NCBI GenBank assembly: GCA_964016885.1
Contig: OZ024742.1
Location: 134,912,001 to 134,976,000, forward strand
Length of the DNA stretch: 64,000 nucleotides
DNA from: Eledone cirrhosa
Taxonomy: Eukaryota
Reading direction: 5' to 3'
Below the pieces are notes generated by a model, which made no database searches, was not told the DNA's origin, and saw nothing but the letters and a program-made list of their open reading frames with translations. This document shows positions 4,104 to 56,863 of the stretch, in pieces. The position numbers and the translations under genes are program-made. How positions within the stretch are numbered: the stretch's first letter is position 1; the number at the start of each line of letters is the position of its first letter.

Positions 4104-4525
4104 ATATCTATAAATTATAATAAACGAAGCCAAATTTTACATATTTGACTTAATTTGTTTTATATATATATATATATATATATAGATTTTGAGTTTATGT
4201 TGGTTGTATACCAACACCTCAGTATGCAGGCTGGAGCACTCGACGAAGTGCGCAGGTTGGTTTGGTTACTCCGGAGTAGTGTAAAATAAAGTTAAATAAA
4301 AGTCAAATGATTAAAATTTAGCTTCGTTTATTACTGCTATATATATTTCAATGACAGCCATCTTTGGCTGTGACCTCTTCAGGCAGTTTGAATTAGTATG
4401 GTATAGACAAGTACATATGTTGTTTAGGTGTATGATATTGTCAATACTCTGATATGCCCAGTTCCTTGTTGGGTTGTTAATTCACCTAAACAACATATGT
4501 ACTTGTCTATACCATACTAATTCAA

Positions 4526-29392: not shown

Positions 29393-31182
29393 TAAAGCAC
29401 TAATGACTAATTCTGAAAAACAATTCATCGTCAAAAGAGAGGATATCGATTAATCGGTAAAATGAATGATTATATACTAATTAACCAGTAAAATACCTGA
29501 TACCGATTATATACTAAGTAATGGGTAGGAATACCAATTGTGTTATTTTGAAAGTTGCATTTACGAAATGTAATTCTGCAAGGTATTATAAATCCTTTGT
29601 AATTGGCGATAATAATATCACCAAGTAAAACTTTTAATAATAATATCACCAAGTAAAACTTTTATTTATAAAACTAAAATATGAGCCTGTTGAGTATAAA
29701 TAAAGCACCTCGATATCCTTTGAAACATATATAGCCTGACCTCGCGACAAGATCTAGCCTTGAAATATGTCATATATATTTTTCTTATTGTATTTATCTC
29801 TAAACCTAATCTTCGATCACCCATTACAATATGTATAAATTATTATATTGCTTTTCTTCAATGTTTCAATAAATCATGTTTTGGGGTTTTAATTGCATTG
29901 ATGTCATTGTCCCACCGACAACTCCCCCCCCCCCATATCAGCTGTACTTAACCCAAGGCATCAAAGTGAAAACAATGAGACATTCCAACACGTATAACAC
30001 AATGAGAGATTGCAACATATTGCTCGTAAAACTCCAACACCATCTTTACTACAACCACACCTACTACTGCTAGCAATAGCGCTACAACCACCAACACTAC
30101 TACTATCTTAGAAGATATTTTCTCGCCGCTTCTACAAATACTATTACAACTATATATTTTGCCACGACTACTGAGGTGGGACAGCAGTAATTGAGACATA
30201 GCAGCGGGTGGAGTCAGGACTATTTTTGATCTTGTGGATGTGGGTGTTATTAATGCTGTCTGAGAAGGTGTACTTGTGGTTCTTGCGGTTGTTACAGTTA
30301 TATTCCTAGTTGTTGGTGAGGCTAACGGCGGTAGAGATGGCACTGTTGCCGATGGAGTTGTGGATGTGAATATCACTGCCACTCTCACCACCATGGTCGC
30401 TCTACTGTCACACCCAACCCACCCTAGCTAGATAATGTATGCTCTAGATCGTTTAACCTATCAATTAGGTTTTACGACAACACAGCACCACTTAGTCATC
30501 CCCCCTGACTGGGTTCCATAGCAGTGTTCAAAGAAGCATGACCTCGCCCGACGTCATACTATTACTGTCCCCATCGCCGCAGTCGTTGTTGTTATAATTG
30601 TCATTGATAATGTTATAGCTGTTTACATAATCATCAAAAGCTTTTGCTTCATTTCTATTTCGTTTCTTTCTTCACTACTTTAACTTTCTGTTCTTTCATT
30701 TTTTTGGTATTTCTTTACTTTTTCATTTGTTTAACATGTTTTAATTCTAAATATACATTTGCATTTTATTTTTGTTATTGCATTTATATATTTGCATTTC
30801 GTAACTTACCCATCTGTCTATCTTTTTATCTATCCATCTCCCTTCCCCAATATATGTGTACAGAAAGGGATCACTTGACTTGTTCAACTGATAGAATTGA
30901 TTCTGCGCCTATAGACGCATATTTGATGAAATGTCGGTGGAGAATCAGGCCCCGAAGATTATGATCGAACTACGAGTTAATCGATATCGAAAGAATTATC
31001 ATATGCAATAACATTCATTTATGGTGCAACGATGCCTTCGTTCCTGCTCACTTGGATTTGCAGTCTACATGTACTGCCAGGTTAGCCCTGAAGTATAAAC
31101 CAACTAGAGAGGGAAGCACGTAACAGTATTGCATGCTTTAAACGACCTATCACATGTAACTATAGTTACACACATATCTACC

Positions 31183-31218
<36 letters not shown>

Positions 31219-31222
<4 letters not shown>

Positions 31223-32422
31223 ATTAATGCTCTGAAATAGCGATATATATGTGAATATAGACATAGAATATTCGAAAATATTCTGTATGTTTATAATAAA
31301 CATTTTGAAGACCTAATCGCTATAGAATAGAATACGTCACGTATTACAATTAGATTCTCGATAAAAGCAAGGGAAGTAATCTACGCGTTTCATTCTTGTT
31401 AGAAATCTTCAGGACCACATATCCAGTGCTTTTATCGAGAATGACACAGCTAGAGACTTATAGAATACTTAGCTGTGTACAGGAACTGGTTTGAAAGAGC
31501 GATTGCCGGTCCGGCAGAAATTAGAAATTGGAATTAATGCTCTGAAATAGCGATATATATGTGAATATAGACATAGAATATTCGAAAATATTCTGTATGT
31601 TTATAATAAACATTTTGAAGACCTAATCGCTATAGAATAGAATACGTCACGTATTACAATTAGATTCTCGATAAAAGCAAGGGAAGTAATCTACGCGTTT
31701 CATTCTTGTTAGAAATCTTCAGGACCACATATCCAGTGCTTTTATCGAGAATGACACAGCTAGAGACTTATAGAATACTTAGCTGTGTACAGGAACTGGT
31801 TTGAAAGAGCGATTGCCGGTCCGGCAGAAATTAGAAATTGGAATTAATGCTCTGAAATAGCGATATATATGTGAATATAGACATAGGATATTCGAAAATA
31901 TTCTGTATGTTTATAATAAACATTTCGATAAAAGCACTGGATATGTGGTCCTGAAGATTTCTAACAAGAATGAAACGCGTAGATATACTTCCCTTGCTTT
32001 TATCGAGAATGTAATTGTAATACGTGACGTATTCTATTCTATAGCGATTAGGTCTTCAAAATGTTTATTATAAACATACAGAATATTTTCGAATATTCTA
32101 TGTCTATATTCACATATATATCGCTATTTCAGAGCATTAATTCCAATTTCTAATTTCTGCCGGACCGGCAATCGCTCTTTCAAACCAGTTCCTGTACACA
32201 GCTAAGTATTCTATAAGTCTCTAGCTGTGTCATTCTCGATAAAAGCACTGGATATGTGGTCCTGAAGATTTCTAACAAGAATGAAACGCGTAGATTACTT
32301 CCCTTGCTTTTATCGAGAATCTAATTGTAATACGTGACGCATTCTATTCTATAGCGATTAGGTCTTCAAAATGTTTATTATAAACATACAGAATATTTTC
32401 GAATATTCTATGTCTATATTCA
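31219..32422. repeat. 310-bp hammerhead-containing tandem repeat in two opposed blocks, within (TA)n
   Basis: Units at 31219-31528, 31529-31838 and a partial unit to 31925; then ~1.6 inverted units at 31926-32422; copies almost identical. Confidence 0.95.
32256..32298 (+). ncRNA. Minimal type I hammerhead ribozyme (also 31945-31988 plus, 31376-31418 minus, 31686-31728 minus)
   Basis: GTGGTC CTGAAGA TTTCT aaca AGAAT GAAA CGCG TA GATTAC; helix I is extended by ATTCTCGATAAAAGCA/TGCTTTTATCGAGAAT. Confidence 0.85.
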
Positions 32423-32449
32423 TATATATATATATATATATATATAGAA

Positions 32450-34905
32450 ATTGTAGATATATAATTTTGATATCATTATGGGATCATCTGACTCGGCGCA
32501 AGTAACGGACCTCGTTGGATTATTTATTAATAATGTACTGCATAGGAAAATGCCAGAGATTACCGGAGGTTCATATCTCGACGATATGTTACTTTTAATT
32601 GAAAATCATAGCAATAGTGAAATGAATAGGAAAAGGAAATCCATAATACAATTTTTCAACAACTACAACCTTAATTTAGAAATCGAAAATAATTAAAAAA
32701 TCGTTAACTTCTTAGATGTAACCTAAAACCATAGCACAGGTTTTTACTATCCATTCCATAAAAATTAACGAAAGTCTAAATTACGTAAGTTTCAATTCTA
32801 ATCATCCTAGAAATATAAAAAAACACTATTGTCCAACAGCGGATTTCACGTATCTCTGCTAATAAAAATATTGTTGATGATAAGGCAGAATATTACAATG
32901 AGGCTTTATATAGAGCAGGATGTTCGAATAAAATTAAATACATAGATAACAATAACATGACAAATCATAATAGAATTCATTATAATAACCATAATCAATT
33001 TAACTTAAATACAAAACCAAACAAAAAACTAGAACTAGAAATATTATTTGGTACTTTCGCCCATTCTCATTAAGCGTTAAAACAAAGCTATTTTTTAAAG
33101 CAATAGATACATGTTTTCCTATGGCCTATGAACATATCACACAATATAAATAGAATCAAATAATAGAAACTTAAATTTAAACCCTAACCAAACAAACCAA
33201 GATAGCAATAATAATATTTCTAACAACAATATTCATAATAATAGTACCGTTCTGAATATCAACAACTCCAGGAAAAATGTAACTTGTAGAATTAAATCAA
33301 ACTGCCCTTTACAAAATAATTGCTTAGACAAAACGTAATTTATAAATCCACAGTTAAAACTAGAGACAAAATATTTAACTATATTGGTGCCACTTCTACA
33401 AAATTCAAAGAACGCTGGTATAACCATCAACTCACATTTAATAGAACCGATAAAAAATCTTCCACTTCACTTTCACATTTAATTTAGAATTTAAAAGACA
33501 ACAATATAGACTATTCAATATCTTGGGGAACGATTTCGAAAGCACCTGCATATCGAAATATGGCTTTCTCAAGATTCTGTAACTTGTGTATCCAGGACAT
33601 TTTTTTATATAATTAACTGTCAAAAGTCTATTAATTTAAGAACAGAATTATTTTCTAGTTGCAGACATCGCCAAAATTCCACTTTCAGAAGTATATTTTA
33701 TTTATCATATTCATTACACTTGACTATATATTATACACCTTTAAAATGATTCTGTTATTTACTGAGTAATTTCTTTAAAAATTAAATTTAAATTTTTTTT
33801 AACTGATCTTCCTTCTTAATTTTTAATAATTTTACTATTTTTACTATTTGACATTATTTTCTTAATTATACTGCTCCAAATATATTTTTTTAGATGTAGA
33901 TTGATAATCTTTAATTGATATTCTGAAAGTTATCCTCTTTGCGATAGTTTTTTGAAATGCGCAATACTTTTTTCCTCTTCTTTGATCTTCAAACTTTCAG
34001 ACAACTTTCGACTATAATACTATATAATTGAAATTAATTTCACACTAAAATAATATATAATTTTCTCTATATATTTTCATCAAATTTAACGGTTAGCAAA
34101 CAAGATTGGAGTTATCTTTTCCTTTTCAATCGAGTAAACATAAACATTATAATATAATATGTATGATATAACTTCGCTAAATTAACAATATTTTGAAAAC
34201 ATTTTCAATGTTCGTACAAAATATTTGAATCTATATATTGTTCTCCTCTTACAACTTGAATTACGCGTTTTTTTAATGTAAAATGTAGAATCAACATCAT
34301 TCGTAACTCGTATGAGAAATGTAAACAACTAATAATTGTAACATTTCTATTTCTATAATACTTATACATGCACAATTATTAATCTATATAGATATTTATA
34401 TATTTACAACCTGTTGTAATCTAATAAGATAAAATCTAGTTACAACCATAATTCTTCATATAATGTAATTGATTATATATTCAATATTATAACTCATAAT
34501 ACAGCTAAATACATTTTAAATTCTGGAATCATATTCCACCATTCCTGCAAATTGTTAATTCCTTTCAAATTAACGTAAACACAAGCTCTTCTTTCTTTCT
34601 TTTATCCTAATTATTTAAATTCTGCATAGCGTCTAAAAATAACGTTTTTTCAGCCCTATACCTCAACCTCATTTGCATACTCACCTTAATAATTTGAAAT
34701 ATCTAAGTTTTCTTCTATTTTCCTTCACTATCCAGGAAAGACTTGAACCGTTAAGGTATTTTTCTTCGTTATGTCAATATTTATAAAACAACCTTTGTAT
34801 TTAATCTGATGAGAGCGTACCAAAGATTTAGTACCCTTGAAATATATATAATAGAATAAATATGGTTTTATAAATATAGTTTCCATTTATTTAATATCAT
34901 TGTAT
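32450..34905 (+). mobile_element. 5'-truncated Penelope-like element (RT C-terminal half, GIY-YIG, 3' UTR/pLTR)
   Basis: MGSSDSAQVTDLVG...GGSYLDD, VNFLDVT, CPLQNNCL and FSSCRH in broken frames; the 3' end carries a hammerhead at 34798-34858 followed by a short (TA)n. Confidence 0.9.
34798..34858 (+). ncRNA. Minimal hammerhead ribozyme at the PLE 3' end
   Basis: CTGATGA GAG-C-GTAC..GTAC-C-CTT GAAA T ATAT A TA ATAGAATA. Confidence 0.75.
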
Positions 34906-40792: not shown

Positions 40793-41180
40793 TAAACGGA
40801 ATAGAAAATGCTGACAAATTGTTCACAGTTGAAAAATGGTTTAATTAGGAATAAAAGAGTATTAGTGATTGTATGGGTTAGTATTCAGTTGTGGTTTTAA
40901 GTTTTTAAGTTTTTACCGGTTGCGCATTTCTAAATGCTTTTCAAAAATAATTTTGAGATAGAGTGTCCGTGCTGTTTGCTCTGATCAGCAAACAGCACGG
41001 ACACTCTATCTCAAAATTATTTTTGAAAAGCATTTAGAAATGCGCAACCGGTAAAAACTTAAAAACTTAAAACCACAACTGAATACTAACCCATACAATC
41101 ACTAATACTCTTTTATTCCTAATTAAACCATTTTTCAACTGTGAACAATTTGTCAGCATTTTCTATTCCGTTTACCAATA
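40789..41180. repeat. Near-perfect palindrome (~190 bp arms) with degenerate hammerhead-like motif, upstream of the PLE ORF
   Basis: Centre TGTTTGCT-ctgatc-AGCAAACA at about 40983; the arms contain TTGAAAA GCATT taga AATGC GCAA CCGG TA. Confidence 0.9.
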
Positions 41181-55157: not shown

Positions 55158-56863
55158 AAATACAAATATTAATAAAATAGATGTTCTTTTGATCAATTAA
55201 ATGTTATTATACATATTTCGGAGGTACAACAGTACGTCATCATCAGACAAAATATAATGATACATGACATACCCTGAGATGTTAAATGGTTAAGATTTAA
55301 TCAAGGTAGTGAATAACCTAAGAGAAAATTCAACATGTATACCATAATAATGAGAAAATGCTAAAGTTAAATAGATACCTATTAGTATTAGTGATACAGT
55401 ATACTTTAGGTAAATGATAACGATTATAATCTTATATAATAGATTTCAACGTGTTACATTTAAATACATACATATATATAAGAAAAATAATAATAATAAA
55501 TGCATGGATAATTCAGAGTTCAAAATAAGGTCCGTAATAATTTATAGTTGGGATATTTGCTCTATATTTGAATCATGGATATGGTAGGTATATTTAAAAA
55601 TCTTACAAAAGATAATTACATGCAAATTATAAATAAGAAATAAAAAATGTAAACACATGAAAGATTCACAGTTAAAAATAAGCTCCGTAAAAATATATAG
55701 GTTGGATATTTAAACTAAAATTTAAAACTTAGATAGGAAAATAAAGATAGAGAAATAATGGTATGGATCAAAGTTAATAATATTATGTTATGTATATCAA
55801 CATGCCAGCGTGTTATTGAACAAGTGTCATTCATTCGAGCGTTATTTCACTTTGAACTGTGAATAATTCAAGCAATTACACCCTGTTATATATAGGTATA
55901 TATTTAACTTTAGCATGCTTCAATCTATTATTTTATATTTGTAATCATTTACCTAAAATATACTGGCTCATTAATATATATCTATATACATAATCGTTAT
56001 TTAAATATTTCTAACAATAAGTACTTCATAAGATTTACATACCAAAAATGTTGACATTTTTATAGATAATCTTCGTTAAAGTTTACATTTAGGAAATATT
56101 CAACATTATAAATTTTCCTTTCGCTGGCCAGGTAAATCCTTTAAATGTTATCCTCATAAAATTCAGAAGTTTAGAAATGTTAACACACTTATAGAATTTA
56201 TAAAATTAATAACTATAAATAACCAGCAACATTTAAAAATCTTGATTCTTCACCCTAAAATAACATAAATTAAATATTTTGAAACTTAACCGTTCAGCTT
56301 TTGGAAAAAAATCTCTTTCTGCATATATTACTCCCCTTTATCTTTCCCTCTCTTTAAATCCCCTTTCAGCGGCCCTCATTGAATGTTATAATTCATGAGA
56401 TGTTTTCCTAGATAACCATAACTTGTAGTATCGTACATTTTAAACTCTCTATAGCTGTCACATTAACCAACGTTTTTCTTACTCACACATTCTCTATTGA
56501 ATTTGTTACGTTTTCGCATTTACTCTTTATTAGGGTATAAATGTTGAATTTTCTCTTAGGTGAATCACTACTTTGATTAAATCTTAACCATTTAACATCT
56601 CAGGGTATGTGATGTATCATTATATTTTGTCTGATGATGACGTACTGTTGTACCTCCGAAATATGTTTAATAACATTTAATTGATCAAAAGAACATCTAT
56701 TTTATAAATATTTGTATTTTAATATTAATAACTCTGGAAAATTATTTTTGCTGTAGAGTGCTTCCAATCTACTGTAAAACGCATTGTTTGATATACTCAT
56801 TGAATCTTCTTTAACTCTTTAATATATACTGCTCCCAACTGGTTGATTGCATATTCAATAAAT

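Follow-up and report, generated by a model that had tools for sequence, protein, structure and literature searches.

How did an array of 310-bp repeat units, carrying predicted hammerhead ribozymes and reversing its orientation half-way, come to lie inside a tract of TA repeats? The array occupies positions 31217-32422 of the window, by which we mean the whole stretch of 64,000 nucleotides of Eledone cirrhosa DNA that was analysed. We propose, with a probability of roughly 0.6, that it is one insertion of a 310-bp retrozyme family, twin-primed in (TA)n by a PLE endonuclease-RT acting on a single RNA, which was likely a monomer circle. Phases of the unit are counted from the first base past the predicted ribozyme cut (phase 1 = window position 32293), and the locus is made up as follows.

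31186-31218, no strand: left (TA)n target tract
31217-31928, ribozyme sense on the minus strand: left arm, 2.3 units, with the long (tail) end as its 3' end, at phase 165
31217-31251, minus strand: tail of ~35 nt, phases 131-165, present at the left end only
31217-31323, minus strand: 3' module, phases 59-165, resembling sister family B and in part family C
31925-31928, no strand: 5'-to-5' junction of the arms; the left arm stops at about phase 74-77 and the right arm begins at phase 254
31925-32422, plus strand: right arm, 1.6 units, reverse complement of the left; its 3' end is the short end, at phase 130
32422-32446, no strand: right (TA)n target tract
32461-34100, plus strand: neighbour outside the element, an older, broken PLE-like RT-endonuclease copy, truncated at its 5' end and 82-88% similar to other copies in the genome

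Read in ribozyme sense, the two arms point apart and are joined at their 5' ends. The left arm repeats with a period of 310 bp over 2.3 copies (99% matches), its units 1 and 2 being identical. The first-pass annotation had described 2.3 near-identical monomers followed by 1.6 in reverse, the lack of an open reading frame and (TA)n on both flanks, and each of these points holds; in a trimer of the unit the longest frame runs to 30 aa from Met and 46 aa from stop to stop. The fold of the monomer has a z score of -4.01 against shuffles. Among the contigs listed for runs X2 and X20, which drop rare variants, none bridges the arm junction of the window locus. The neighbouring PLE-like copy was considered as a driver of the insertion and rejected, as it does not continue into the left flank, and no homology was found between it and the 310-bp unit.

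Four hammerhead cores (CUGAAGA ... GAAA-CGCG-UA) are present, starting at 31412 (-), 31722 (-), 31951 (+) and 32262 (+).

31382-31412, minus strand: type I hammerhead core 1, cut predicted to fall between 31382 and 31381
31692-31722, minus strand: type I hammerhead core 2
31951-31981, plus strand: type I hammerhead core 3, with one inserted base in the 3' strand of helix I
32262-32292, plus strand: type I hammerhead core 4, cut predicted to fall after 32292, with a palindromic helix/loop III
32232-32320, plus strand: whole ribozyme domain, closed by a 16-bp stem (32232-32247 with 32305-32320)

The perfect 16-bp stem, the CGCG loop III and the GUA site followed by a cut after 32292 had all been read from the sequence at first pass, and the predicted structure agrees with that reading at every one of these points. 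The ribozyme domain folds with a z score of -5.71, none of 200 shuffles being equally stable, and it shows the type I boxes CUGANGA and GAAA, the A15.1-U16.1 pair and an NUH cut site; the cut triplet is GUA in the window and GUU or GUC in most sister-family copies. Helix I is open and forms 6 of 6 pairs, helix II opens on a U.U mismatch followed by 4 pairs, and helix III consists of two pairs with a loop of 2 nt, inside a 6-nt palindrome that between two copies is computed to give a 6-bp intermolecular pairing of -9.5 kcal/mol. At the base of helix II the pair G10.1-C11.1 is replaced by U.U in the window and in most copies of families A (that of the window) and B, and by C.A in most family C copies. 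The Rfam hammerhead models gave no match at gathering score over the whole window, nor at E<=10 over 30400-33300; three Rfam matches on the TA tract were dismissed as chance, and no other credible family appeared. Because of this lack of an Rfam hammerhead match and of the U.U at the opening of helix II, the cleavage activity of the predicted hammerhead may be weak. Such a build has been described as characteristic of those type I hammerheads of animals which depend on dimer formation (Cervera and de la Pena, PMC4209133). The axolotl retrozyme HHR_Amex2, with a unit of ~350 bp, likewise has a two-pair helix III and a U.U at the base of helix II, and is described as cleaving weakly as a monomer and well as a dimer (PMC7229834); the unit studied here, with its 2-nt loop III in a 6-nt palindrome, is likened to it by build and not by sequence. 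One-base insertions 2-4 nt past the predicted cut are fixed in the arrays of loci L097, L106 and L116, and a single one is found in the window (31985).

The array is one copy of a young non-LTR retrozyme family with a 310-bp unit. The unit is tandem, falls within 150-450 bp, carries one hammerhead each time, is found in dispersed copies and has no coding region, and no LTR-like direct termini were seen in the loci examined. In genome G000 (3.0 Gb), 16,909 exact matches to the intact core pattern and 15,105 to an internal pattern of the unit were counted, and 1,070 long and 1,236 short ends stood exactly against TA; the reversed controls gave 0 matches in every case. From the share of sampled ends that fit the exact patterns, we estimate a total of ~1,500-2,000 loci. 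A genome-wide count of copies and of the phases at which arrays end had been proposed as a check at first pass, and it returns more than 1,000 sites, with ends at two fixed phases. Metazoan non-LTR retrozymes as described by Cervera and de la Pena (2020, PMC7229834) and Li et al. (bioRxiv 10.64898/2026.07.22.740005) have in common with this family the 150-450-bp unit, the one type I hammerhead and the absence of an open reading frame, and also a GC content below 50%, a highly self-paired fold, duplications of more than 4 bp where visible and coexistence with PLEs.

Two older sister families accompany the young one, family B (~88-96% match to its query; 2,873 candidates in G000) and the more decayed family C. 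Family B comprises loci L167-L199, family C loci L200-L211, L077, L081 and L082, and a still older fragment lies in L122 (506-605); the 3' module and the habit of ending at two sites are common to B, C and this fragment, and all of them look like successive waves of one lineage. In 25 scored copies (7 of A, 9 of B and 9 of C) the hammerhead core is invariant except at N7, and the families mostly retain helices I and II as well as the long basal stem, with different sequence. These helices were scored sequence by sequence, RNAalifold on automatic A/B/C alignments being uninformative because the families are out of register. Over the 3' module, A and B are 76-77% identical (phases 59-165) and A and C 81-83% identical over ~52 nt, and from this conservation we infer that the module, 107 nt long, may be the region of recognition and priming. 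A pattern search for related hammerheads gave 131 matches, and the 100 listed were variants of A together with family C, with no partner among them; metagenome and viral contigs gave 0 matches to the unit. Another abundant short family (L047, L057, L114, L156, L165), with a hammerhead-like motif and a helix II resembling that of the 310-bp unit, is inserted as small pairs, arranged head to head, whose ends lie at two sites in (TA)n.

The reversal is the normal form of the family and not an accident of the window locus. We examined 53 loci, namely the window, 34 drawn from the best matches, 17 in the first 36 Mb of C1 (one of them chosen by its long end) and one other, and found two arms joined 5'-to-5' in 46; of the other seven, one meets an N gap and in another the second arm is ~25 nt long. 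An arm consists solely of units, up to 10 of them, set head to tail. In 43 of the 46 two-armed loci (the exceptions being L032, L044 and L064) a long end is paired with a short one. Long ends lie at phase 159-176, mostly at 165, and short ends at 125-147, or by strict matching at 127-130 in most loci; an apparent short end at 139 reflects the likeness of the unit to TA at that point. The two ends are thus ~35 nt apart, and in sister family B the difference is clean and unambiguous (35 nt). On C1, up to 218.5 Mb, all 53 outward-facing pairs of ends within 16 kb were long with short, where ~50% would be expected, and none was long with long or short with short; this count was made among the 84 long and 100 short ends listed and overlaps in part with the set of 53 loci. 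A crude end call in family B, which defaults very short arms to 'short' and counts two loci twice, gave 12 long-short, 6 short-short and 1 long-long pairs (19 two-armed among 33 loci). The target is as constant as the ends, (TA)3 lying within 20 nt of 84 of 92 arm ends, and at non-TA targets duplications of 6-15 bp (L033) and ~12 bp (L112) were recognised by eye among 18 loci displayed. The mid-array switch of direction reported at first pass is therefore real; what that reading had missed is that the switch is a family-wide rule with two fixed 3' ends, which is a signature of PLEs.

PLE insertions have been described as 5'-truncated partial tandems with an inverted 5' copy, a tail of 30-40 bp at one end and a bias towards (TA)n (Craig et al., PMC8557442, where the tail is called optional). 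Head-to-head pLTRs, duplications of 8-10 bp and a 31-bp tail are also on record (Arkhipova et al., PMC3846280). A Poseidon protein, predicted to be a dimer, has been reported to cut and extend both strands of AT-rich DNA in vitro and to start at two internal sites of the RNA, next to each other, which delimit the tail (Frangieh et al., PMC11167929). The insertions studied here show the inverted 5' arm, the one-sided tail with its two 3' sites and the microsatellite target with a short duplication, and we hold it very probable that the retrozyme is PLE-driven. Candidate drivers exist in G000, where 150 of 10,596 GIY-YIG candidates were scored and the locus sequence was taken for 50; they include open frames, 938 and 1,096 aa long, that contain an RT, a Cys linker such as has been described in Neptune and Nematis and, at the C-terminus, an endonuclease of the GIY-YIG type, and two end sites in (TA)n are also a feature of the candidate PLE families. 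Across 372,905 bases from PLE-bearing loci and the window (50 of the 10,596 candidates), we met no PLE homologous in sequence to the unit, and a search for the 3' module by BLAST and profile over 61 PLE-bearing loci and the window matched only retrozyme-like insertions. No clear chimera with a PLE arm was present among the seven loci not classed as two-armed. A likeness of the two end sites to those of one PLE family (L118, L164) is loose, short and AT-rich and was not counted. Pfam returned nothing under E = 0.05 for six broken PLE pieces of the window, and PDB no match for the 1,096-aa frame.

The two arms of an insertion probably come from one template. They carry the same haplotype in all 36 loci in which each arm holds at least one unit, 14 haplotypes being represented; between loci, 168 of 1,260 arm pairs share a haplotype (13%). 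Equal haplotypes could also come from one dominant transcribed locus per germ cell, or from conversion of one arm by the other. The predicted cleavage site is crossed by 88 of 92 arms and a single arm of the 92 has its 5' end within 5 nt of the predicted cut, which therefore excludes a cleaved linear monomer, copied once, as the template; the phases of the 5' ends show no departure from uniformity (p = 0.29). The arrays are homogeneous, with 43 minority variants in 73,780 inner-unit bases (L040 left out). The near identity of the units and the crossing of the cut support the earlier proposal of a recent insertion from a circular or multimeric RNA of ~310 nt. L102, L106 and L116 have private variants, fixed in all units of the two arms. 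Since linear copying can neither carry a new variant into all units nor restore units once lost, the process must include a monomer step, and rolling-circle reverse transcription, which has been proposed for retrozymes (PMC7229834; PMC7761336), is the simplest account of it. We lean towards a circle rather than a linear multimer as the template. Minority variants shared by more than one unit at L061 (where they are mirrored in both arms), L116 and L036 are left unexplained by a monomer circle. At the junctions, microhomology of at least 2 nt is found in 19 of 46 loci, compared with 18% in simulation (p = 1.7e-4); most junctions are overlaps of 0-3 nt at unrelated phases and not palindromes, and 13 were scored as insertions, several of them owing to a nearby variant. 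Arm 5' ends fall on the strands of the 16-bp stem in 12 of 92 cases (phases 11-19) and 10 of 92 (phases 250-266), and the arms of L102 join through the whole stem.

The variants recurring at L061, L116 and L036 speak for another reading, in which PLE twin priming acted on a linear uncleaved multimer, or on cleaved monomers joined by template jumps, the hammerhead being weak or incidental and no circle being involved. To this reading also belong the reports that the Poseidon PLE used uncleaved RNA in vitro, its hammerhead being dispensable (PMC11167929), and that 8 of 9 Xenopus retrozyme dimers were uncleaved (bioRxiv 10.64898/2026.07.22.740005). Yet linear copying only keeps or loses units, and private variants are fixed in all of them; three families that have diverged retain the hammerhead core and helices, 5' ends do not pile up at the cut, and no indel sits exactly at a unit junction in the arrays compared. 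We regard this reading as unlikely, and as less likely still the folding back of one cDNA that then primes the second arm on itself, a model proposed for the inverted repeats of Penelope (PMC3846280). Fold-back would make equal haplotypes automatic and fits the mirrored variant of L061, and some events may indeed be fold-backs, near-symmetric arms being found in 5 of 43 loci where 1.9 are expected (p = 0.047). As a general rule simple fold-back fails, because either arm can be the longer one, the long-end arm in 26 loci and the short-end arm in 17, with differences of up to 1.9 kb either way; the junctions, mostly short overlaps without palindromes, tell against it as well, and it leaves the constant stop of the second arm at the other fixed site without a reason.

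Readings that dispense with an independent retrotransposed element appear very improbable. A satellite grown at the DNA level by unequal exchange, with a chance inversion, or a fold-back artefact of assembly would suit the unbridged junction of the window and the variant common to adjacent units of L116, and local amplification has been favoured for tandem retrozymes (bioRxiv 10.64898/2026.07.22.740005). Against both stand at least 1,000 dispersed sites with fixed and paired ends, the target duplications, the contigs of run X1, in which opposite-orientation joints occur at several phases and ends are joined to TA, and the PLE copies in the window, which have the same inverted layout. A similarly small chance attaches to the unit being a truncated pLTR of an autonomous PLE: retrozymes and pLTRs are reported to be homologous in Xenopus (bioRxiv 10.64898/2026.07.22.740005), and the geometry of a hammerhead followed by two ends 130-165 nt downstream resembles PLE ends in G000. 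The arms, however, are head-to-tail multimers that close on themselves, no frame exceeds 30 aa from Met, and the PLE loci sampled yielded neither an RT and GIY-YIG frame belonging to the unit nor a PLE end homologous to it. The first-pass annotation had taken an occurrence of the unit only ever as the pLTR of an ORF-bearing PLE to speak against its proposal, and this is not what the 53 loci show.

For the twin-primed insertion from a single, probably circular RNA that we favour, we propose a series of linked steps. Transcripts of the arrays would be cleaved by the hammerhead, probably in dimeric form, and the products ligated to 310-nt circles. Judging from the ends of the arrays, a PLE enzyme would then bind the conserved 3' module and make staggered nicks, roughly 6-15 bp apart, in the two strands of (TA)n; reverse transcription would start on one strand at phase ~165 and on the opposite strand at phase ~130. 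Each enzyme would run for 0.3-10 units with no preferred stop phase, the lengths and phases being those observed in the arms. The 3' ends of the cDNAs may finally anneal by microhomology of 1-3 nt, each templating the second strand of the other. The full form of this model, a PLE enzyme dimer that sits on one ribozyme-made circle and copies it from both cut strands at two sites 35 nt apart, is offered tentatively, its chances being somewhat short of even; the family would then be a record of more than a thousand near-identical events of this sort. Were it true, one step would explain both the spread of animal retrozymes and the head-to-head repeats of PLEs with their one-sided tail, and the conserved module of 107 nt would act as a transferable signal for insertions of this kind.

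The array shares with endonuclease-bearing PLEs as described (Penelope/Poseidon, Neptune) the 5'-truncated head-to-head arms, the 30-40-nt tail, the microsatellite target, the short duplication, the microhomology at the 5' joint and the internal 3' ends downstream of a hammerhead. It differs from them in having no open reading frame, in that both arms are multimers of a 310-nt unit and in the regular pairing of a tail with a short end (43/46 loci; 53/53 pairs). In L1 twin priming, both cut strands prime on one RNA and an inverted 5' part is joined by microhomology, the first primer using the poly(A) tail and the second landing at variable internal sites. Here, in contrast, both start sites are fixed, 35 nt apart, and there is no poly(A). 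The non-autonomous Chlamys element MRC1 has 3' sequence in common with its autonomous partner (PMC8557442), whereas no such partner was found here among the PLE loci sampled; most Chlamys elements are described as lacking canonical hammerheads (PMC8557442).

PLEs have already been proposed as drivers of retrozymes, on the grounds of co-occurrence and pLTR homology (PMC7229834; bioRxiv 10.64898/2026.07.22.740005). The main texts of these two sources contain no description of inverted arms or fixed 3' ends for retrozyme arrays, nor does that of the preprint describe a tail, and no report of head-to-head retrozyme insertions was met in the titles and abstract openings searched, which covered few subscription journals. 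In comparison with known retrozymes, the inverted arms and two fixed ends are near universal here and provide evidence for the class of driver at the level of the insertion. Which retroelement moves animal retrozymes has been stated to be open (PMC7761336, PMC7229834), a characterisation of their mobilisation mechanisms has been called for (bioRxiv 10.64898/2026.07.22.740005), and the origin of the tandem and inverted structures and tails of PLEs has likewise been stated to be open (PMC8557442). The present results link the question of the retrozyme driver with that of PLE structure through the anatomy of the insertions rather than through co-occurrence. They add two constraints, that the two ends differ as a rule (43/46; 53/53) and that both arms are of one haplotype, and the 310-nt RNA, whose start sites are mapped, could serve as it stands in the in vitro PLE assay already published.

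Matches to the array also appeared in sequencing runs of other organisms. In 16 other coded organisms (runs including X4, X7, X14, X21 and X22), 0.33-0.39 of the sampled array words were found. None of the listed runs with such matches was recorded as RNA, and run X20 was left aside as evidence of expression. Runs X4, X7 and X14 each gave one contig of 340 nt, a closed monomer, at a depth of 26, 34 and 365, respectively; the X4 and X7 contigs have five differences from the window, and that of X14 has a different haplotype, which is also common in G000. The raw Hi-C reads of the X14 organism gave 0 matching reads in 1.9 Gb, twice, in searches run without a positive control. Carry-over from a very abundant repeat is the most likely origin of these matches, and spread between species is possible.

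The window itself contains further PLE-like structures. A near-complete but broken PLE-like element, with motif positions 55246 (-) and 56631 (+) and reaching to ~59900, consists of an inverted 5' copy, a hammerhead-like motif, RT-endonuclease frames, a second motif and a (TA)n end. Short head-to-head PLE-like ends with hammerhead-like motifs lie at 4382/4531, 22932/23098 and 46209/46678, and in each of these three pairs one arm stops at TA earlier than the other. Several young PLE families (L147, L159, L164, and window positions 41043 and 45717) carry a degenerate hammerhead-like motif, in which the first box departs from CUGANGA and the palindromic helix III is kept.
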